In this document: piece after piece, positions 17,580 to 28,003 of the stretch | Position numbering within the stretch: position 1 is the stretch's first letter | Layout: each line of letters begins with the position of its first letter | Assembly: GCA_937922825.1 (NCBI GenBank) | Contig: CALAJS010000217.1 | Span: forward strand, 1 to 33,367 | Reading direction: 5' to 3' | DNA: 33,367 bases | Origin: an uncultured Bacteroidia bacterium | Lineage (GTDB): Bacteria > Bacteroidota > Bacteroidia > J057 > CALLMJ01 | Notes under the pieces: generated by a model | The model's input: the letters and a program-made list of their open reading frames with translations, nothing else | Databases searched by the model: none | What the model was told of the DNA's origin: nothing | Position numbers and translations under genes: made by a program

Positions 17580-17882
17580 TTAATTGCGGATTTTTTCTTT
17601 GTATTTAATGATTTGTTTCTTTAAAGAATCCACACAAATATCCGTGGCTTCCTCAAAAGTTTTACATTGTTCTTCTGCAAACAGCGTTTTTGAGGGAACA
17701 AAAACTTTAATTTCCACGATTTTGTTACCATCTTCTTTAATTTTTGTGTTTTGAAGTTTTAGTAACACTTCAACGTTCACAATACCATCAAAGAATTGCG
17801 TTAATTTTTGGCATTTTTCGTTAATGAACTGCAGTAATTTTTTGTCTGCGTCAAAGTGGATGGATTCAATGTTTACTTTCAT
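17580..17882 (-). CDS. hpf: Ribosome hibernation-promoting factor / ribosome-associated inhibitor A.
   Basis: 100 aa. N-terminus MKVNIESIHFDADKKLLQFINEK and overall pattern typical of the RaiA/HPF short form. Confidence 0.75.
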   Translation of the reverse strand: MKVNIESIHFDADKKLLQFINEKCQKLTQFFDGIVNVEVLLKLQNTKIKEDGNKIVEIKVFVPSKTLFAEEQCKTFEEATDICVDSLKKQIIKYKEKIRN

Positions 17883-17911
17883 ATCCGTAAAAATTTAAAA
17901 GTTAAATATTA

Positions 17912-18811
17912 CTACGATTTAGGATGTGCTTGTTTATAAATCGATTTCAGTTTGCTAAGGGTATTATGGGTATAAATTTGTGTTGCCGCTAAATTTGCGT
18001 GACCGAGCATCTCTTTTACGGCGTCAATTTCAGCGCCATGATCTAATAAATGCGTTGCAAAAGTATGCCTTAATATGTGTGGTGAATTCTTGGCTAGTTT
18101 GGTATATGCAAGCAACGCATTCTTAACTATTCTATACAATAGTTTATCGTACATGGGCATCCCGTTCTTTCTTACTAACAAAACCTGATTTTTTATACCA
18201 TGATTTTGACAATACGCTTCATATTTCTGTATGCAATTTTTCGTACTTTCATTAAAAGGGACTATACGAGTTTTATTACCTTTCCCCGTGACTCTCACTA
18301 ATTGATTATTCAGGTTTATATCTTTCCATTGAACATTTAATAATTCTGACCTACGTAAACCTGAAGAGTATAAGAACTCTATAATCAACTGATTACGAAG
18401 TTGTTCAAATTCAGTTTTCCACTGAATATTATTGAGTAAATTTTCCATATCTCGTTCAGGGACAAAGTGAGGTATCCTTTTAGGTTTCTTGGGAGACAAC
18501 AATTTCCGCGTAGGATTATGCGTTAGGTTCCCAATTTTTTGTTGATACTTAAAAAAGTTTTTTATGCTTGCTATTTTTCGGCGTATCGATGAAGCATGCA
18601 AACCCTCTTCGTATAACTTTCTTAACCATAGCTTTAAATGATTGTGGTGAAGATTTTGAATATTTGAAAGCTCAAAAAAATCTTGGGGGTTTCTATTTGC
18701 GGATAGAATACGTGCAAATTGCATTAAATCTGATTCATAAGCAGTTAGAGTATGCTCTGAACGTTTTTTTTCGTATTGTAAGTATCGGAGAAATGGCTCA
18801 ATTGTATTCAT
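17912..18811 (-). CDS. Tyrosine site-specific recombinase, XerC/XerD type.
   Basis: C-terminal catalytic box HILRHTFATHLLDHGAEIDAVKEMLGHANLAATQIYTH with the catalytic Tyr. N-terminal SAM-like domain. Confidence 0.8.
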   Translation of the reverse strand: MNTIEPFLRYLQYEKKRSEHTLTAYESDLMQFARILSANRNPQDFFELSNIQNLHHNHLKLWLRKLYEEGLHASSIRRKIASIKNFFKYQQKIGNLTHNPTRKLLSPKKPKRIPHFVPERDMENLLNNIQWKTEFEQLRNQLIIEFLYSSGLRRSELLNVQWKDINLNNQLVRVTGKGNKTRIVPFNESTKNCIQKYEAYCQNHGIKNQVLLVRKNGMPMYDKLLYRIVKNALLAYTKLAKNSPHILRHTFATHLLDHGAEIDAVKEMLGHANLAATQIYTHNTLSKLKSIYKQAHPKS

Positions 18812-18912: not shown

Positions 18913-18963
18913 AAAAAAATTAGTCGTTGGCTTGATTTGATAAAATATCTTTTTCCCAACGAC
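18913..18963 (-). terminator. Rho-independent terminator of the csm operon.
   Basis: On the minus strand, stem GTCGTTGG...CCAACGAC (8 bp) is followed by TAATTTTTTTCT, 22 nt after the csm6 stop. Confidence 0.5.
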
Positions 18964-18984: not shown

Positions 18985-20511
18985 CTAGTATTTTGTTACA
19001 AATCTACTTTCTCTCGCTTTGGTAATCCCCGTATCAATATACTCTATAATCTTGTGATTGAGCTTCTCATATATATCTTCCTCAATTTTTAATATTTTTC
19101 TAAACTCACGAAAAAGTAAATTAATCTCATCTATATTGTCTGGGTAAATTTTCTTTTTAGCTTTTTTTAGTTTTTTGATGATTGTTGTATGGGAAAAAGA
19201 ATCCACTCCATGCGCAGCGATAGATTCATTCCGTAAACTTTTCAAATCTTTTACGTAATTTTTAAAATTCATTTTTTGTTTGAACTCAGGGGAATTCTCT
19301 AATTCTTTATCATGTTCAATAAAATAATTCAGCAAATTTTCTGTAAGATAAGTAGTAGGATTATCCTCTAAATACCTTATTTCTTTTTTTTCTAAATAAA
19401 GTTTTAAATCTTCTTTATCAATTCTTTGATTTTCCTTGTCATTTAAATATTTTTCAAATTCTTGCTTCCAATCGTTTTGTTCAGGATAATTTATTCCAGT
19501 AATGTTGATAACTTCTTGTAATTGTAACATTTCTATAAATCGGAAGATTCTCAAAAGGAAATCATCATAATCACCTTGTTGAAACTTTATGAAACAACTG
19601 TAATACAATTGTCTCATCGTAAATTTTTCTTTGTCCAAATCTTTAACATCATTAATGAGTAGTTCAATAAAGCTATCCTCGGATTTTGGGAAATGTTTTT
19701 GGTTATTTTCTAATGTTTGAATGGCTTTTTCAGGTTGAAAAATCAATCGGTTGTGGGCGTATTCTGCGAGCGTTCGGATTTTAATATCAATCGAGTGGAG
19801 TTCCAGTATAGCGGCATAGTTATATTTTTCAACAAACCTACGAGCAAATTTATATTCTAAAACCGTATAAAAACGTGTTTTTATATCTATTTTAAAACTT
19901 TGTTTTCTTTTTTCATCTACCATTACCTCCACCAAAGACTTATCTTGGGAATATAGATGTAGTACTACAAAACGAACGGCGTTATTGATAGCGTCTATAC
20001 CACCAACTAAATGTAAGTATAAATTTTCACTTTCAAAAATTTTTTCTTTAAAAGGAGAAGTGGATAGTTTTTCTAACATGAAATCATACATATCATGCAG
20101 ACTTATTACGTTTTCATGGACAGGTAAATGATAGACCTTAACATTTGGATACTTTTTTATGAGAAATTTTTCTAATACCATTCCAAAATAAACGGTATCT
20201 TGATTGTGTTTTTCGTATTGGTCTGTTGCTACCAAAACCACATTATCCAATGTAATTCCTTCCTGCTCAACCATTTTAAGAGTAGGTGTAACAATTGGGA
20301 AGTCAATGTAATCTAGAAAAAAACTAAAATAACGATAAAGAAATTCTCCCAATACTCTTGCAGGAATATTATAAATAGATTTATTACTATTAGTTTCCTT
20401 TTTTAGTTGAGTATATTCCTCTAGGATTTGCGGAGGAATATTGGTATGAGTAAAATCTTCTGTTTTTAATTGTATGTCTCGGGTTCCAAGTGTTATAATT
20501 AATGTATTCAT
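18985..20511 (-). CDS. csm6: Csm6-type CARF-HEPN ribonuclease.
   Basis: The N-terminal Rossmann-like CARF pattern (IITLGTRD...VVLVATDQ...LHLVGGIDAINNA) resembles Csm6/Csx1 LGTS and TSGTK motifs. The C-terminal HEPN motif R-x6-H reads RNESIAAHG. It is the last gene of the csm operon. Confidence 0.65.
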   Translation of the reverse strand: MNTLIITLGTRDIQLKTEDFTHTNIPPQILEEYTQLKKETNSNKSIYNIPARVLGEFLYRYFSFFLDYIDFPIVTPTLKMVEQEGITLDNVVLVATDQYEKHNQDTVYFGMVLEKFLIKKYPNVKVYHLPVHENVISLHDMYDFMLEKLSTSPFKEKIFESENLYLHLVGGIDAINNAVRFVVLHLYSQDKSLVEVMVDEKRKQSFKIDIKTRFYTVLEYKFARRFVEKYNYAAILELHSIDIKIRTLAEYAHNRLIFQPEKAIQTLENNQKHFPKSEDSFIELLINDVKDLDKEKFTMRQLYYSCFIKFQQGDYDDFLLRIFRFIEMLQLQEVINITGINYPEQNDWKQEFEKYLNDKENQRIDKEDLKLYLEKKEIRYLEDNPTTYLTENLLNYFIEHDKELENSPEFKQKMNFKNYVKDLKSLRNESIAAHGVDSFSHTTIIKKLKKAKKKIYPDNIDEINLLFREFRKILKIEEDIYEKLNHKIIEYIDTGITKARESRFVTKY

Positions 20512-20523
20512 GATAAAAATTAG

Positions 20524-21645
20524 TTAAAATAATGTAAATTTAACAAAACCAAGTGGTGTTCCATCTGATAAGTATCTACGAGTTTTGGGATAAATATCTT
20601 TGTAATGGGCTCTTGGGTCAATTTTTTTTATTTTATCGGATTTATTTTCAATGAAAGAAAAATCTAACCAACCACCGGTCATACCGATATAGCCTAAACC
20701 AAAACCTACACGAATATAAAATTCATTGGGTTTCTTATTATTCATTTTATGAATTAAATCATTAAGTTTATCTAAATATTTTTCAATGGTACTATCACGG
20801 TTTTTATCTAATTGTTCATAATCTTTTTTACATATTTTGATGGTTTGGTCGTGCATGATTTGTAAAAAGGTTTCAGTATTTTCTATTTTGGAGAATACAT
20901 TAACATTATCTGGATAATTTCCTTTTAATAATAATTCGTTATTTTTTAGATATTTATAGGCTGTTATTTCATTGGGAGTTTGTAAATCTACTAAATAGGA
21001 TTGTTTAGGCGAGATACATTCAATAGGTTGCATAACGTTAGGTCTTCCTTTGATTTGGTATTTCCATTCACTACCATGTTTATTTGCAATTTGGACGGAA
21101 TAAATTTGGGTATTTTCAAAATGGGCGTCGTAAATTCTTAAAAACTTCATGAGATTGTTTTGAGTTTTATTAAAGAGATAATCTAAAAGCGGAGCATCCT
21201 TAGGTTTATCGGATTCAAAGCATTCATCAAGTTTTTTTAGAACATGGGTATCTTTTCCAGCGATAGATTTACGAACAATAAGCGTTCTTAAAGCGCCTTT
21301 CAAGCTAGAGCCAGGGATATAAGGTTTTCCCATACCGTTACGAATATTAGATTTAATTTCTTTTTGATAGAGTTTACCGACAACAGGAATTTCACGTGAT
21401 GCTATCTCTTTAGGGGATATACTTCCTGAGATACCTTTGATAAGATTTACGATATTAGTGGAGTCTTCTATGGCGTCTACCCATCGGTCTATGTTATTTT
21501 CTCCAATGTAATGATATACTTTTTGGGGGTCTATGATATAAATTTTTTGGGCTTTCTCGTCATAGAGATAGTCTAGATTTTCATATAATTTTTGCCCTGA
21601 ACCGATATGGACGGGCGTAATGGTTTCAATTTGAATTTTCGTCAT
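20524..21645 (-). CDS. csm5: Csm5 (RAMP, Cas7 group).
   Basis: N-terminus IETITPVHIGSGQKLYENLDY matches the Csm5 consensus. G-rich loop YIPGSSLKGALRT. Confidence 0.75.
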   Translation of the reverse strand: MTKIQIETITPVHIGSGQKLYENLDYLYDEKAQKIYIIDPQKVYHYIGENNIDRWVDAIEDSTNIVNLIKGISGSISPKEIASREIPVVGKLYQKEIKSNIRNGMGKPYIPGSSLKGALRTLIVRKSIAGKDTHVLKKLDECFESDKPKDAPLLDYLFNKTQNNLMKFLRIYDAHFENTQIYSVQIANKHGSEWKYQIKGRPNVMQPIECISPKQSYLVDLQTPNEITAYKYLKNNELLLKGNYPDNVNVFSKIENTETFLQIMHDQTIKICKKDYEQLDKNRDSTIEKYLDKLNDLIHKMNNKKPNEFYIRVGFGLGYIGMTGGWLDFSFIENKSDKIKKIDPRAHYKDIYPKTRRYLSDGTPLGFVKFTLF

Positions 21646-22681
21646 AATTTTTTAAATAAATTTTAAGGAATAACGATTTACCACAACGAGGAATAGGATG
21701 TCCTACATTTTCATCAGGTCTTAAATCTACAATTTTTCCTGATAGTTCATTTGGTGAAAAAAACAAAGAACCTTCTTTGAACATATAAACGCTTTTTTTT
21801 CTTTTACCTGCCCAATATTTATGAGTAGTGCTACTAATATAACCGCCGCATTTGATAAAATCGTAATTAGCATTTTGCAAAATTCCTTGTTGTACTTCTT
21901 CTATGGTTGGGCAGTACAAAGATAAATTGATTGCAAAGTTTGTATTTTCGGGATACTCAAAAGATACAGCGGAAGGGATATATTCAAAATCAAAAGTTCC
22001 CCAGCCGTAAGTTCTATCTCCCCCAAGACCATTATCCCCAAGCAACCTAAAAACGGATTCTATCTCTTTGTTGTAAACATTCGGATTTAACAAACAATAT
22101 AAACCTGCTTCTGGCATAAATTGTAGAGATTGCGTGTAGTAAGGAACGGACATTTGAACCATTTCATGGTTAACTTCACTTACTGAAATGCTTGCTCTTT
22201 GGTATTCAGCTAATTTAAATAGGGGTTTTATAGGTTCTGAATTCTGAGACGAAAGAGTTAGGAATAATTCGTCTTTACTAAATGCGTTCAGGGGAATTTT
22301 TATAGAAGTTTGGGGATTTAAAAGAACGTATTGCATAGCGTATTGGTCCAAAAATTGGAGGTTTTTAAATTTTTTGTGATAGGATATATCAGGAGTACTT
22401 TCTGCAATCTCGAAAGGCAAGCGGATAAAAGGTTTAGGGAAAAATAATTGGTCTTTATAGAAGGGGAAAGCACTACTGATTTGGGCGAGTTTATTTTGCC
22501 ATTCGATATTTTGTTCGGCTTGCCAAGGACCGAATAGTTCTAACGCTAAATAATAAAGGGCGGCTTTCAAAGTATCAGAGTGAACTACATGAAAAAGTTG
22601 GCTTTGGTCTCCTTTAGCTATACTTAATTGTAGAGGCTGCCGAAAATGTAGTTTTACTACATCAAACGTTTGCTTTTTCAT
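21626..22681 (-). CDS. csm4: Csm4 (RAMP, Cas5 group).
   Basis: N-terminus KLHFRQPLQLS...HSDTLKAALYYLA fits the Csm4/Cmr3 pattern (xSDTLFSAL). C-terminal glycine-rich region. Overlaps csm5 and csm3 as in compact csm operons. Confidence 0.7.
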   Translation of the reverse strand: MKKQTFDVVKLHFRQPLQLSIAKGDQSQLFHVVHSDTLKAALYYLALELFGPWQAEQNIEWQNKLAQISSAFPFYKDQLFFPKPFIRLPFEIAESTPDISYHKKFKNLQFLDQYAMQYVLLNPQTSIKIPLNAFSKDELFLTLSSQNSEPIKPLFKLAEYQRASISVSEVNHEMVQMSVPYYTQSLQFMPEAGLYCLLNPNVYNKEIESVFRLLGDNGLGGDRTYGWGTFDFEYIPSAVSFEYPENTNFAINLSLYCPTIEEVQQGILQNANYDFIKCGGYISSTTHKYWAGKRKKSVYMFKEGSLFFSPNELSGKIVDLRPDENVGHPIPRCGKSLFLKIYLKNYDENSN

Positions 22682-23399
22682 AGTTAGTAAATAAATTGCG
22701 TAAGGTTTCGTTTTGGGGTATGGGATAGTCTTTTTCTTGTTCTTGGAATTTATAGAAACCTGCTGTTCTTTCTTTTATTTCTTGAATGAAAAACTTTACT
22801 TTTCCGTAACCTCTTGAACCACAGCCACCTAAATAGTCATTTTCGATTAACAATAGCCCCGCAAACGTATCATTTACTAATTGTTTTTCGTCATCAATAT
22901 CAAAGATATTGAGCACCATATTCAAGCGGAAACGAGCTTCTGCTGGAACACGCTCAAATGTTCTCGGAGTTGCGGCAGAAGTAATTCTATCTATTACTAC
23001 TTCTGTTTTACTTTCCGTGTAGGGCAAATCCGTATTTACGAAATCTTTATCGTCATTTAACAAATCCGCATCATACACTATAATACGTGAAGATCTTTGT
23101 TTTTCATCTCCTGACGAGCATCCAAATAATTTAGAAGAGTTCGTATTCGGATTTTCGGATGGTCCGTTATTTACTTTTCCCATAGATTTATTACCAATTG
23201 TTCCGTCACGAATCTCAATTAGACTACGCATTTTTCCTTTAATGGAACTTCCAGGAATATAAGGCTTGTTTGTCAAGGGGTTACGAATCACAGGACTATC
23301 TACTCCCCCAATGGATAACACCGAGGAACTTCCCCCCACTCTTATGCCACTCAATGCTTTAATTTCACCTTTGATAATAATTTTTTTTACTAACTTCAT
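22662..23399 (-). CDS. csm3: Csm3 (RAMP, Cas7 backbone subunit).
   Basis: ALSGIRVGG...PYIPGSSIKGKMRSLIE is the canonical Csm3 G-rich loop. 245 aa. Confidence 0.8.
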   Translation of the reverse strand: MKLVKKIIIKGEIKALSGIRVGGSSSVLSIGGVDSPVIRNPLTNKPYIPGSSIKGKMRSLIEIRDGTIGNKSMGKVNNGPSENPNTNSSKLFGCSSGDEKQRSSRIIVYDADLLNDDKDFVNTDLPYTESKTEVVIDRITSAATPRTFERVPAEARFRLNMVLNIFDIDDEKQLVNDTFAGLLLIENDYLGGCGSRGYGKVKFFIQEIKERTAGFYKFQEQEKDYPIPQNETLRNLFTNYEKANV

Positions 23400-23414
23400 A
23401 TCTTATGCTATTTT

Positions 23415-23837
23415 TTAATTTCCACCATGTGCTTTGTGATACGCTAATATTGCTTCTAATAAGTCTACGTAATTCTTAAACTTTTTTTCTAAGTTTTCTT
23501 CATTCGAAATTACGGCTTGATGTGCTTTACTCATTAAATCTTTGAAAAGGTCTAGCCCTGGCTTATTTGCACGTTTAGCTGTGTAAGCTAATTTGGGCTT
23601 TAGCATGTAGAAGGCATTTTTTTCGCTTTGAATACCTTTCATTTGAATGCGCTTAACCTCACCAAAGAAATTTCGTATTTGCGAGGTAGTTAAATCTCCA
23701 TTTTTGATTTCTTTTGCGAAATTTTCACAATACTCAATAGTTTGGGAATCAAACCCATCGGTTATCCAACTGGATTTAAAATCCTCCAATATTTTTCTAT
23801 TGTTGGTTTCTTTGTTTTTTGTTGGTTTTGAGTTCAT
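23415..23837 (-). CDS. csm2: Csm2 (Cas11 small subunit).
   Basis: 140 aa with a helical composition, sitting between cas10 and csm3. The conserved small-subunit segment TSQIRNFFGEV is present. Confidence 0.65.
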   Translation of the reverse strand: MNSKPTKNKETNNRKILEDFKSSWITDGFDSQTIEYCENFAKEIKNGDLTTSQIRNFFGEVKRIQMKGIQSEKNAFYMLKPKLAYTAKRANKPGLDLFKDLMSKAHQAVISNEENLEKKFKNYVDLLEAILAYHKAHGGN

Positions 23838-23852
23838 ATTATTATTGAATTT

Positions 23853-26123
23853 TTAATTTTCGGAACGAATTTCTAATTCTGCCCAGCGAGCGGCTACGCC
23901 TACTAAATCTATATAATCATAGTCGCTGTATGATTTACTACTATTTAATAAGCAATCTTTTTGTAATTGCTCTAAAAATAATTTTAGGTCTTGGTTATGA
24001 CGGTTTGAGTCAATCATTCTTTTGATGTGATAGGCTAGCAACCATTTCCATTGTGGATTTTGTTTTTTTTCTGTGAGTTCTTTTTTTAGTTCGTAGAAAT
24101 TCATTAGTTTGGTTATCAAGGATTTATTTATATTTTGTACGGTAATAAAATTAACGAACTTATTTTTTAATTCTTTGACTTTAGGGAATTCTTTTTCCCA
24201 GTTCATAGGGAAATCTAAGAAGGTGATAGCGTTTTTTTCTTGATCTTTACAGCGGTGTTTTTTAGATTTTTTTTCTGCTTCATGGGATAAATTGGCGGCT
24301 TGAAGGATGGGATATTTATTATTGACGAGTACTATGCCGCCTGATAAAGTAAAATAGGGATTATGGGCAACCCATTGCTTAAATTCTGTATAGATTTGTT
24401 CTGCGAACAGGACTACTTGTTTCCAATCGCCAATTACAAAAAGGTCATCTCCTCCTGCATACAGGATATTGATATGATTTTTATATTCATTTTGTTCACG
24501 TAGGAGATAAAGGTAACCTCGGAAAAAGTAATCGAGGCTTCTACTGATATTGGATAAGCGTACGATAGTTTTTTGGGATCCACTTAAACCGTTCATAAAA
24601 ATTTGCCCTAGGTTGTCCACGTCCATACGTAGTATTCCTAAACGTTTCAAACTTGTACTTGCAAGTAGGTTTTCAAAACTAGTTACTTTTTGGCTTTTGC
24701 TGTAATTCCATTTTAATCTGGATTGGAAATTTGTGGGCACTTTTTCGTGAAAATGAATATAGCGTAACGTATCCATGGATAGGGGTTGTCGGGGTATATT
24801 ATCATATACTTTACAGCCCCAACCAGAAAAGGGGCTTTTTATCGTGACGTCTCGGGGTAACGTTTTATGCATCAAATGAATTTCTTTCATGTCCACTAAA
24901 CATTCCCCTAACTTAATTAAGCGTTTGGTTTGCTCCGATAATATTAAATTTTCACTTTCTCCGTATTCTTCTACTTCTTCGCCTGTGATGCGGTCTATTT
25001 CGCTTTCTATATTTCCCCAAGGCTCAAAAAAGCTAACATAATTTTTTTCTATGATGAGATGGTATTTTCTACGTTTTTTTGCATTTAAAATTTCTGATAA
25101 ATTACGCCATTTTTCGTGGATTTTGTATTGTTTTATATCTAATGGTGATAATGTAGTATATCCTAACGAAAGATATAACTGCATTTTGTGGATACTTAAT
25201 AGATCTTGTTGTATTTTTTTTTCTATTTCATGAAACTCTGAACGTATCTTTTCCGTATTCGGTGCTAATAAATAAAAGCCTCCTCCCGATACATAAACAA
25301 TGTGGGATTGCGTTAAATCTAACGTACGGATGAGTTCTTGTACTGCCCATTCCGTGATTAACTGTAAATAATAGGAACGTCCTTTTAGATTTTTTCCTGC
25401 TGATTTATTGATTACATCATATATAAATGCTTGTATGCCCGATAAATCTCCTCCAATCAACAAAAATACGGGCAGGTCTTCTTTTAAATTTTCTATTAGG
25501 TCTATATTTCCTAACTCACTGACCACGTAATCATAAATACTCAAACTTATACCATTGAAGAATTGTAAGTAATCATAATAAGAAATATCGGTAGGTGCAG
25601 TAGTGTAAGGTATAAAAGAAGTATATTTTTGTAGTAAACTTAGCAGATTATCATTAAAATATAGCAGGTTCGGGCTTGATACATTTTTACATTCTTCCCT
25701 AAATTCTGACCATATTATCTGATAATCGGTTTGTATGGTATCTATTTTTCTTTCTTTTAGTTTTTTGGGGAATATTCGTTGTTGAAAACTAAATATTTCT
25801 GATGGGTAATAGTATTTTTCGGTAGTTTTTTTATCCCATTCCTTTACACTTTGAGCGACTGGTATCAAATAATTATCTTTTGTTTGCTCTGATATAGTTT
25901 CTGTTACTACCAATCTTTTTGACCATTCTTGTAACGTTTTGTACCATTTAGAATTATAGATATTTGATACTTGATATTGTATTTCGTTCCACTTTGGTTC
26001 GAGGCAACTTTCCATTAATGTTTTTACCTCTTCTGTGTTCTGGTTTGCCCTTTTACACAAGCCTTCAATATGGCTAATTTGATTACGTAAATATAAATAA
26101 TTTTTTTCGTTTTCTGGTATCAT
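23853..26123 (-). CDS. cas10: Cas10/Csm1 large subunit. It carries Palm/GGDD cyclase domains but no recognisable N-terminal HD motif.
   Basis: Palm1 reads LLIGGDLSGIQAFIY (the GDxxGIQxFI pattern) and Palm2 reads ILYAGGDDLFVIGDW (GGDD). No H-D dyad could be found in the first ~150 aa. Confidence 0.8.
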   Translation of the reverse strand: MIPENEKNYLYLRNQISHIEGLCKRANQNTEEVKTLMESCLEPKWNEIQYQVSNIYNSKWYKTLQEWSKRLVVTETISEQTKDNYLIPVAQSVKEWDKKTTEKYYYPSEIFSFQQRIFPKKLKERKIDTIQTDYQIIWSEFREECKNVSSPNLLYFNDNLLSLLQKYTSFIPYTTAPTDISYYDYLQFFNGISLSIYDYVVSELGNIDLIENLKEDLPVFLLIGGDLSGIQAFIYDVINKSAGKNLKGRSYYLQLITEWAVQELIRTLDLTQSHIVYVSGGGFYLLAPNTEKIRSEFHEIEKKIQQDLLSIHKMQLYLSLGYTTLSPLDIKQYKIHEKWRNLSEILNAKKRRKYHLIIEKNYVSFFEPWGNIESEIDRITGEEVEEYGESENLILSEQTKRLIKLGECLVDMKEIHLMHKTLPRDVTIKSPFSGWGCKVYDNIPRQPLSMDTLRYIHFHEKVPTNFQSRLKWNYSKSQKVTSFENLLASTSLKRLGILRMDVDNLGQIFMNGLSGSQKTIVRLSNISRSLDYFFRGYLYLLREQNEYKNHINILYAGGDDLFVIGDWKQVVLFAEQIYTEFKQWVAHNPYFTLSGGIVLVNNKYPILQAANLSHEAEKKSKKHRCKDQEKNAITFLDFPMNWEKEFPKVKELKNKFVNFITVQNINKSLITKLMNFYELKKELTEKKQNPQWKWLLAYHIKRMIDSNRHNQDLKLFLEQLQKDCLLNSSKSYSDYDYIDLVGVAARWAELEIRSEN

Positions 26124-26124
26124 T

Positions 26125-26820
26125 TTAATGAACTTTTGTAATCGGCTCTTTTATTACTGCTTTCTGAACGGTCCCGTATCCTATACTTGCTAATTTACCA
26201 ATATTCACATCTATTGGTAAGGTCATATTCACTGAAAAGTCAATATCTAAATTATACAATTTGATACCTTTATAGTTTATCCATCGTTCTTTTCTTATAT
26301 CTTCTATTACTGCTTTTATAGGGGATTCTAAGGTATATCGAATACCTTCCGCAAAATTGATGATATGGGCTACTAGGATTCTTTCTAACATTTCTACCCG
26401 AGCTTTTAACGAATAGGTCTTAAAATACATTTCATAATTTTTGGAGTTTAGGGGCAACCAATTCTTTAAACGATATCTTACTTGCTCGTCCCATACTTGG
26501 ATAACTATGGGTTTTAAATACATATTTTCTATATTTAACTCTCTTCTTTTGCCATGGAAGTCTATGTATAAAGGGGGATTTCCTATATGAGATAGTAAAC
26601 AATCACTAGCTTCTTCTAAACATACTAAATGGGCTTTTTCGTCTTTTGTATTAAACTGTGCCAAAGGATAACGAAACCGTTTACTTCCGTCTTCTAAATG
26701 ATGATGAAAATACTCTGCTCCTTCTTGTATCTCTTTTGAAAATGCATAACGGAATGCTCGTATTTCTTCGGAGTTAATCCCTAAATCAAAAGTTAGACCT
26801 ATATATTTCAACTTTTTCAT
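26125..26820 (-). CDS. cas6: Cas6 crRNA-processing endoribonuclease.
   Basis: First gene of the operon, 231 aa. The C-terminal G-rich loop NIGKLASIGYG compares with GIKTSLGMG in characterised type III Cas6. Confidence 0.55.
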   Translation of the reverse strand: MKKLKYIGLTFDLGINSEEIRAFRYAFSKEIQEGAEYFHHHLEDGSKRFRYPLAQFNTKDEKAHLVCLEEASDCLLSHIGNPPLYIDFHGKRRELNIENMYLKPIVIQVWDEQVRYRLKNWLPLNSKNYEMYFKTYSLKARVEMLERILVAHIINFAEGIRYTLESPIKAVIEDIRKERWINYKGIKLYNLDIDFSVNMTLPIDVNIGKLASIGYGTVQKAVIKEPITKVH

Positions 26821-26870
26821 CTTTTGTTTTATTTTTACGTTTTTATCTGCAAAAATAAAATAAAGTTTTT

Positions 26871-26917
26871 TATACGAAAATTTTTTTTACTTAATTGTAA
26901 AAAAAATTTTCGTATAA
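26871..26917. promoter_or_regulatory. Near-perfect 47-bp palindrome in the cas6/csm promoter region. Candidate operator.
   Basis: TTATACGAAATTTTTTTTAC-TTAATT-GTAAAAAAAATTTTCGTATAA. The arms differ by a single T. It lies 50-100 bp upstream of the cas6 ATG. Confidence 0.4.
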
Positions 26918-27018
26918 ATTTGTAAGCAATTAAAGTTCTTTGAAATCAAGGGATATTATCTAAAAATATAGGTGCTGTGAAGCACTAATCTTAAATTTTA
27001 AATTCTAATTACTATTAA

Positions 27019-27472
27019 GTGTATATACTATCTATTAAGCGGTGTTTTCTGCAACTTATTATCTGTTTCATGAAAAGTGTATACACTATTGAAATTATAA
27101 ACAAGAAATTGTTTATGACTTCGTTACCACAATAAGCGTAGCAACACCAAACCTTTTAATAAGTTAAGTTGCTACGCTTTATTCTTTTATAGGAGATTAT
27201 TTCCAATTTGTTCTTTGATAGTTAAACTAATTTTTATACTTTTGCTAAATATTAGAATTCAAAAATTGAGCTTTTACATAAAAAAACAATGTAAAAAAGT
27301 GTTAAAAATAAAAAAAAAGGAGAAATAACCATTTGATATTGAGATAGTTATGAATTATCGGTGTATATACCATCTAATTAATAGGAGTTCACAACTTAAA
27401 AATATGGCATACGATGAGATCATTGGGTGTATCCACCATCTGATCAGTAGGTGTCCACAACTATCCACATAT
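27019..27472. repeat. Cluster of four degenerate copies of a 36-45 bp direct repeat upstream of cas6. Possible vestigial CRISPR array.
   Basis: Copies begin at 27019, 27077 (partial), 27361 and 27427, each starting GTGTATATAC(C)ATCTA. Copies 3 and 4 match at 29 of their first 36 positions and lie 66 bp apart, as expected for a 36-nt repeat plus a 30-nt spacer. Confidence 0.35.
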
Positions 27473-27492
27473 CGTTATGCTTGTCTTTTTGG

Positions 27493-27942
27493 TTAAATAT
27501 CTAATATAGCCATTGTTAGGCGACTAATACAGGTAAGTTTGCCTTTTTCATTAGTGATTTGGATATCCCAGACGTGTGTAGTTTTTCCTAGATGGATAGG
27601 GGAGCATTTGCCAAATACATATCCATGAGTTTCAGAGCGAATATGATTGGCGTTGATTTCTAAACCTACGCATTTTTTGGTAAGTCCAAGATGAGTAATA
27701 TAAAGTCCTGAGGCAGTTGAGCCAATAGATTCCGCTAAAACTACGGACGCTCCCCCATGTAGTAAACCGAATGGTTGTTTCGTTTTAGCGGTCACAGGCA
27801 TTCTTGCCACTAAATAGTTAGGTCCAATTTCTATAAATTCAATCTCTAAAAATTCTATCATGCAACCTTTTGAAAAATCGTTTAATTGTTTCGGAGTAAC
27901 TTCTGGAAAAATTTTTTCTGTCATATTTTTTGATTTAAACAA
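27493..27942 (-). CDS. Hotdog-fold thioesterase (PaaI/DHNA-CoA hydrolase-like).
   Basis: GLLHGGASVVLAESIGSTA motif. 149 aa. Confidence 0.7.
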   Translation of the reverse strand: MFKSKNMTEKIFPEVTPKQLNDFSKGCMIEFLEIEFIEIGPNYLVARMPVTAKTKQPFGLLHGGASVVLAESIGSTASGLYITHLGLTKKCVGLEINANHIRSETHGYVFGKCSPIHLGKTTHVWDIQITNEKGKLTCISRLTMAILDI

Positions 27943-28003
27943 TAAAACTAGATGTAAAGTTTAAGATTCTTCGTAATTTATATAAAAAAAGTAATTTTGT
28001 GTA

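Follow-up and report, generated by a model that had tools for sequence, protein, structure and literature searches.

The question raised by a 33,367-nt metagenomic contig from an uncultured Bacteroidia bacterium is whether the type III-A (Csm) effector operon that it encodes, seven open reading frames (ORFs) on the minus strand between positions 26820 and 18985, is still served by a CRISPR array of its own. The whole contig was analyzed and is referred to here as the window. An initial annotation made from the sequence alone had recognized the operon but no bona fide array, and had proposed that the effector complex either uses an array elsewhere in the genome or is an orphaned or decaying module. 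Both proposals are contradicted by an adjacent, leader-bearing array and by intact catalytic motifs in the effector proteins; indeed, the repeat unit quoted in that annotation is repeat 1 of this small array, located at 27360-27461. The locus is very probably a complete type III-A interference and signaling module equipped with its own CRISPR array, ordinary in kind and apparently working.

The identity of the operon is as first described. The order cas6-cas10-csm2-csm3-csm4-csm5-csm6 and the assignment to type III-A are supported by searches with Cas profile models, the gene coordinates given originally are exact, and the ORFs are compactly arranged, with short gaps or overlaps between neighbors. 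Strong profile matches were obtained for six of the seven proteins, namely Cas6, Cas10/Csm1, Csm2, Csm3, Csm4, and Csm5 (Table 1). Csm2 through Csm5 all score beyond the curated profile cut-offs, and the presence of the Csm2 small subunit separates the system from type III-B. The terminator placed previously at the end of the operon likewise corresponds to a minus-strand hairpin followed by a T-run. At the other end, the perfect inverted repeat upstream of cas6 adjoins a minus-strand -7 box resembling TAnnTTTG, likely the promoter of the cas operon, and this inverted repeat could be an operator that regulates the operon.

Table 1. Features of the III-A locus and its array, in window coordinates, with the evidence for each.
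Feature	Position	Strand	Evidence or description
Terminator-like hairpin and T-run closing the operon	18913..18963	-	Nine-pair stem GGUCGUUGG/CCAACGACU, then UAAUUUUUUU; z = -2.35
Csm6-family CARF-HEPN ancillary RNase (508 aa)	18985..20511	-	PADLOC Csx1 2e-42, CARF_HEPN; Pfam Csm6 HEPN 31.8 bits
csm5 (Cas7-like, 373 aa)	20524..21645	-	TIGR01899 1e-25
csm4 (Cas5, 351 aa)	21626..22681	-	TIGR01903 6e-55; Pfam Csm4_C
csm3 (Cas7 backbone RNase, 245 aa)	22662..23399	-	TIGR02582 7e-61
csm2 (Cas11 small subunit, 140 aa)	23415..23837	-	Pfam Csm2_III-A 3e-24; TIGR01870 66.7 bits vs cut-off 30.6
cas10/csm1 (756 aa)	23853..26123	-	TIGR02578 482 bits vs cut-off 170; Pfam Cas10-Cmr2_palm2, Csm1_B
cas6 (Cas6b-type crRNA-processing endoribonuclease, 231 aa)	26125..26820	-	Pfam Cas6b_C 4e-28, Cas6b_N 2e-14; PADLOC Cas6 1e-33
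Perfect inverted repeat, candidate operator	26869..26918		22-nt arms, 6-nt gap; 49-98 nt upstream of the cas6 start codon
Pair of highly degenerate repeats flanking 21 nt	27019..27111	+	Copies at ~27019-27055 and 27077-27111; folds strongly, z = -4.7
Perfect 12-bp hairpin and T-run between the relic repeats and the leader	27134..27179	+	Perfect 12-nt arms; z = -4.2
CRISPR leader, AT-rich	27190..27359	+	Bacteroidetes-type promoter match TTTG-N-TAnnTTTG at 27214-27244; matches the L001 leader
CRISPR repeat 1 (36 nt, perfect)	27360..27395	+	GGTGTATATACCATCTAATTAATAGGAGTTCACAAC; occurs 7 times in L001
Spacer (30 nt), trailer-end	27396..27425	+	Begins TTAAAAATATGG; identical in four assemblies
Degenerate terminal repeat	27426..27461	+	29/36 identical to repeat 1

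The array is located directly upstream of cas6 and is divergently oriented. Its leader holds the only Bacteroidetes-type promoter match that pattern matching finds in this part of the window, and differs from the leader of the sibling contig L001 by a single 1-base difference in an A-run. The position of the leader, the degenerate distal repeat, the variability of the leader-proximal spacers, and the ...ACAAC 3' end of the repeat indicate that the array is transcribed from the plus strand, divergently from cas6. Minus-strand transcription was also considered and is ruled out by these features together with the promoter match.

The extent of the array is clarified by sibling contigs from other assemblies. 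L001 (assembly ERZ6863929) is 99.9% identical to the window over 13.5 kb, and the alignment stops exactly at the end of repeat 1; past this point L001 carries a further six perfect repeats along with seven different spacers (29–31 nt, the last one cut off), and the contig ends within the array, which thus comprises at least seven perfect repeats. On the other side, L002 is 99.98% identical to window positions 27360-33367, has its terminus exactly at the repeat start (window 27360), and runs 4.5 kb further than the window through genes for DUF6580, cytochrome b5, obg, and rpoC. L002, L003, and L004, which represent the thioesterase side in three samples, all break off within the last good repeat and share the terminal spacer and the degenerate repeat, and two cas6-side contigs have their start within the first repeat. 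Breakpoints of this kind are typically produced when assembly fragments a multi-spacer CRISPR array that varies in the population.

Viewed in this way, the window consists of an L001-type left flank, one shared repeat, and an L002-type right flank, so that its one-spacer array either arose when assembly joined two sequences at the repeat or is a true deletion variant. A single-spacer array that is real in the strain could be a minimal array remaining after recombination between repeats, or one kept for a single dedicated target; the contig does run without a break from the leader across the repeat and spacer to the terminal repeat, and four assemblies have an identical terminal spacer. The join, however, falls exactly on the 36-nt repeat shared by the L001-type and L002-type ends, as a repeat-mediated mis-join would, every other assembly breaks at the repeat, and the spacer has no self-target within the window. 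We therefore regard a genuine one-spacer array as a reasonable possibility, but one that is somewhat improbable.

The sole degenerate part of the effector module is the HD domain of Cas10, a loss that the initial annotation had overlooked. In a search of 5.8 billion proteins, no more than two Cas10 sequences exceed 40% identity; the window Cas10 has one close homologue, at 78% identity, and the next are at most 39% identical over most of the length. The close relative is encoded on a contig (L005/L010; CALLMJ010000030.1) of a metagenome-assembled genome (MAG) labeled 'uncultured Bacteroidia bacterium', with the same seven genes and, in divergent orientation, an array that has no fewer than 11 repeats (GGTGTTATCACCATCTAAATAAAAGGAGTTCACAAC, 30/36 identical to the window repeat) and spacers of ~30 nt. 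When the window Cas10 and this relative are aligned with six HD-bearing relatives (~850 aa), to the nearest of which the window protein is only ~35–39% identical, all of the HD motifs (H, D, HKH, HH, and D) are found to be replaced or deleted in both: LLHDIGKF has become QISHIEGL, a deletion of ~36 residues takes out the HKHV segment, HH is absent, and QKADH has become IYNSKW. The window Cas10 has no Pfam HD match even at E ≤ 10, the N-terminus of a control relative matching at 7e-8. As judged from this alignment, loss of the HD site is a trait of the lineage, common to the 78% relative, and not decay of the window copy. The Palm motifs SGGGFY and AGGDD (the GGDD cyclase) are retained, and in Csm3 the motif GGVDSP aligns with GGIDNP of solved Csm3 proteins, in which the catalytic role of the Asp is established. 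An N-terminal HD nuclease is typical of III-A Cas10 proteins but does not define them. In a published survey, 65% of III-A loci have a recognizable HD domain, which is thus absent from 35% of III-A Cas10 proteins, and a cyclase is found in 92% of Cas10 proteins (PMC11229360).

These observations bear directly on the proposal that the operon is an orphaned or decaying module, no longer immune-competent, and that the two repeats are the debris of an array. In its favor are the single spacer and degenerate second repeat of the window contig, the further degenerate repeat copies at 27019-27111, the lost HD motifs of Cas10, and the absence of cas1 and cas2. This absence, claimed originally for the 33-kb window, is borne out: no Cas1 or Cas2 profile (Pfam or PADLOC) matches among the substantial non-overlapping window ORFs of at least 60 aa, and neither gene is among those called in the 4.5 kb past the right end of the window on L002. 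Against decay, all seven ORFs are intact and their catalytic motifs are conserved except for HD, the HD loss is common to a 78%-identical relative whose array numbers 11 or more perfect repeats, the 99.9%-identical L001 has at least seven perfect repeats with unique spacers, and a degenerate last repeat is normal in CRISPR arrays. A cas1-cas2 adaptation module in the locus is optional in type III. Neither gene occurs in the 10 kb read of the 78% relative, nor within 10 kb in two more distant relatives, L011 and L012, so that lack of a local adaptation module is common to the relatives inspected and is not a sign of decay here. Decay of the module is accordingly highly improbable.

For a working locus, the following sequence of events may be proposed. 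Cas6, of the Cas6b type, would cut the 36-nt repeats at a predicted processing site, leaving an 8-nt 5' tag, UUCACAAC, on the CRISPR RNAs (crRNAs), and the tagged crRNAs would be loaded into a complex of Cas10, Csm2, Csm3, Csm4, and Csm5. On binding of a complementary foreign transcript, Csm3 would cut that RNA and the Palm/GGDD site of Cas10 would synthesize cyclic oligoadenylate (cOA), which in turn would activate the Csm6-family RNase with its CARF and HEPN domains, the product of the last gene of the operon. Since the HD site is lost, the single-stranded DNase arm of Cas10 would be missing in this lineage, leaving it dependent on RNA cleavage and cOA signaling. From the motifs conserved, the locus should thus cleave target RNA and signal by cOA to a HEPN RNase but have no Cas10 DNase activity on single strands, a combination that is often encountered. 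New spacers would be installed in trans by Cas1-Cas2 encoded elsewhere in the genome.

The last protein of the operon, of 508 aa, is the one whose family assignment is the least direct. The PADLOC Csx1 and CARF-HEPN models match over its full length, the Pfam Csm6 HEPN score lies just past the cut-off of 27, and no NCBIfam Csm6 model matches. An exhaustive profile search identifies homologues in 1,117 cluster representatives at E ≤ 0.001, mostly of 430–530 aa among the best 150 of these matches. In an alignment of 61 sequences, residues R427, N428, and H434 (R427-NESIAA-H434; R-N-x5-H) are invariant, as are glycines of the CARF region, and R427 and H434 agree with the R-x4-6-H motif of a C-terminal HEPN domain. 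No PDB chain is found for the protein at E ≤ 1, either by phmmer or by the 61-sequence profile. The AlphaFold model, with a predicted local distance difference test (pLDDT) value of 93.9, has alternating beta/alpha elements in residues 1–208, and the closest solved folds are those of S. thermophilus Csm6', E. italicus Csm6, T. thermophilus Csm6, and Csx1-Crn2; CARF ring nucleases and Csm6 CARF domains are matched as well. The likeness to solved members is at the level of the fold only (TM score ~0.5–0.6, 12–15% identity), and the top matches include both proteins that bind cyclic hexaadenylate (cA6; S. thermophilus Csm6' and E. italicus Csm6) and proteins that bind cyclic tetraadenylate (cA4; T. 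thermophilus Csm6 and Csx1-Crn2). Given this modeled structure, the label 'csm6' is acceptable at the level of family and fold. A membrane-associated effector, to which a weak match to an NCBIfam monooxygenase subunit (E = 0.007) might have pointed, is ruled out, the model being that of a soluble CARF domain with a helical HEPN domain.

With an effector and an array in place, the supply of spacers is the remaining element. Leader-proximal spacers differ between near-identical contigs, which means that spacers have been either gained or differentially lost, and gain at a locus devoid of cas1 and cas2 requires that Cas1-Cas2 act in trans. Presumably, then, spacers are acquired in trans with Cas1-Cas2 encoded elsewhere in the genome. 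Adaptation of this kind has been demonstrated experimentally for a VI-B array of Flavobacterium columnare that has no cas1/2 of its own and uses II-C machinery, the II-C and VI-B loci having in common 36-nt repeats and a leader-distal GTTGT motif (PMC8092290). The window repeat ends in ...CACAAC (reverse complement GTTGTG) and the array has a 36/30 geometry, a lead toward cooperation with a II-C system that is not itself a test of it.

A second interpretation of the missing adaptation genes is that the crRNAs used by the complex come mainly from arrays belonging to a different CRISPR-Cas system at another genomic site, and that this system would also be the supplier of Cas1-Cas2. Besides the local absence of cas1/cas2, this would agree with documented cases in which type III systems share arrays and adaptation modules, and with the resemblance of the 36-nt repeat and 30-nt spacer format and of the leader-distal ACAAC end to II-C and VI-B repeats of Bacteroidota (PMC8092290). 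However, a dedicated array of a Cas6b-compatible repeat family adjoins cas6 here and in all three of the array-bearing relatives, and in the MAG of the 78% relative the repeat family is present at the III-A locus alone. Reliance mainly on crRNAs of another system is thus unlikely, and a module that draws on its own array, perhaps along with additional arrays elsewhere in the genome, is preferred.

Searches for related repeats and for spacer targets were largely negative. A pattern matching both window repeats has no match in GTDB species representatives, a relaxed pattern for the repeat family has none in JGI metagenomes, and a second relaxed pattern retrieves from GTDB only the relative's own locus; these repeat-pattern searches of GTDB and JGI thus brought up neither a second array nor an array of the family with linked cas1/cas2. 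Against cultured phages, 18 concatenated spacers give only chance 20-nt matches at E = 9, and four exact queries with spacers or spacer cores have no match in IMG/VR. Some of the results must be counted against an autonomous, working module: the array of the window contig holds a single spacer, none of the 18 spacers tested yielded a protospacer, and beyond the III-A locus the relative's MAG has no other array of the repeat family.

The element at 27019-27179, with the cas promoter on one side and the array leader on the other, is identical in L001 save for one single-nucleotide polymorphism in the hairpin loop. The pair of degenerate repeats in it is absent from the 78% relative, in which the array starts ~315 nt from cas6 (~115 nt further out than the degenerate pair), and is probably the relic of an older position or start of the array. 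Alternatively, the pair and the hairpin with T-run downstream might encode a CRISPR-derived regulatory or safeguard RNA, similar to the CreR/CreA mini-arrays. The layout of two degenerate repeats around a 21-nt segment would suit such an RNA, as would the strong fold, the 12-bp hairpin and T-run that follow on the same strand, and the position between promoter and leader. On the other hand, no partner of the 21-nt segment occurs in the window even when three mismatches are allowed, promoter evidence is wanting, the element is missing from the 78% relative, and the second copy matches the repeat over only about its first 20 nt; furthermore, because type III systems act on RNA, the promoter-binding logic of CreR/CreA would not be directly transferable. 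A regulatory RNA of this type is very unlikely, and an array relic is the preferred explanation. Rfam has no family above threshold in the intergenic region, its matches being only to tRNAs elsewhere in the window.

Comparison with relatives places the locus more widely. The genes downstream of the module differ between the window and the 78% relative, indicating that the module sits at different genomic sites in the two species. In the more distant Bacteroidota loci L011 (Emticicia-like) and L012 (a Thermoflavifilum MAG), with ~35% Cas10 identity, the order is again cas6b-cas10-csm2-csm3-csm4-csm5-CARF/HEPN and, as noted above, without neighboring cas1/cas2, whereas Cas10 is ~100 aa longer and has an intact HD domain. 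L012 further resembles the window in having a 36-nt GGTGT...ACAAC repeat (GGTGTGCACACTGTCCATTTGAATAAGGATTACAAC) and 30-nt spacers, in an array of ~33 repeats, but the array lies downstream and is co-oriented with the operon. L011 differs in having an extra AAA_14/DUF4143 gene and in being adjoined by relaxase and integrase genes. At L011 264-9134, the module lies directly downstream of genes for a tyrosine integrase, a primase-like protein (BT4734/PriCT), and a relaxase, which suggests that it is carried on an integrative mobilizable element. The repeats of the window and of the 78% relative can form a short 5'-terminal stem-loop, GGUG-N4-yACC, with an unstructured 3' part; in the L012 repeat the same stem-loop is shifted by one base, three sequences being too few for covariation.

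The window has in common with characterized III-A (Csm) systems the Cas10/Csm1-Csm5 subunit set, the Csm6-type CARF-HEPN fold, a locus-encoded Cas6, the GGDD cyclase, and the Csm3 Asp motif, and the closest solved Cas10 and Csm3 chains belong to these systems. It differs from them in the vanished HD motifs of Cas10, the Cas6b family of its Cas6, the divergent array, and the lack of cas1/cas2 in the locus, genes which the III-A loci of S. epidermidis and S. thermophilus carry. A Cas10 that has only the cyclase and works through an ancillary nuclease activated by cOA has precedents in the III-B system of Vibrio metoecus with NucC (PMC8682760), and most III-D Cas10 proteins are likewise without an HD nuclease (PMC11229360). 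The likeness to these systems is limited to a cyclase-only Cas10 and its ancillary nuclease; their complexes are of the Cmr or III-D type and have other effectors, whereas the window combines Csm with a Csm6-family RNase. The VI-B locus of F. columnare is also an RNA-targeting Bacteroidota locus without cas1/cas2, with a strain-variable array and 36-nt repeats, and the leader-distal ACAAC of the window repeat is the reverse complement of its GTTGT motif (PMC8092290). Its effector is Cas13b instead of Csm, and adaptation in trans has been demonstrated there, whereas here it is proposed.

From these comparisons a broader proposal can be put forward tentatively, although it is rather doubtful at present: that a clade of Bacteroidota III-A systems, including this HD-less sublineage, has no adaptation genes of its own and is fed in trans by a heterologous Cas1-Cas2. 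The traits of the putative clade would be the cas6b-csm-csm6 order, 36-nt GGTGT...ACAAC repeats, 30-nt spacers, and strain-variable arrays. Most plausibly, the donor would be a co-resident type II-C system with repeats sharing the leader-distal GTTGT/ACAAC end.

Other features of the window were recorded as well. Directly downstream of the cas operon, positions 17580-18811 (minus strand) encode a Xer-type tyrosine recombinase and a ribosome hibernation factor. An 819-aa protein at 1008-3467 (minus strand) has Major Vault Protein domains (MVP_shoulder 7.5e-28, Vault_3 9e-9, and SPFH/Band_7); a vault-like protein is an uncommon find in a bacterium. At 5610-5859 (plus strand), a tandem pair of identical tRNA-Lys(TTT) genes has tRNA-Leu(GAG) immediately behind it. 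A Peptidase_S74 domain, the chaperone domain of tail fibres or endosialidases, is present in a 413-aa protein at 7629-8870 (minus strand), whose gene contains three 51-nt internal tandem repeats at 8282-8423. The window also encodes a protein with a Por_Secre_tail domain of the type IX secretion system (T9SS), which, like the labeled MAG of the closest relative, marks the source as a member of the Bacteroidota.

The main value of the analysis is a correction: the view of the locus as an array-less orphan arose from an overlooked two-repeat array, itself probably the product of an assembly join through the repeat. Nothing in the locus challenges current understanding; what it adds to a sparsely sampled lineage of Bacteroidia is a Csm system whose Cas10 has the cyclase but not the HD domain and whose Csm6-family RNase is divergent. 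Together with its relatives, the locus provides a candidate set for studying how spacers are supplied to type III arrays of Bacteroidota that have no cas1/cas2. If the proposal of a II-C donor is true, the cooperation between II-C and VI-B systems known from Flavobacterium would extend to a type III system.

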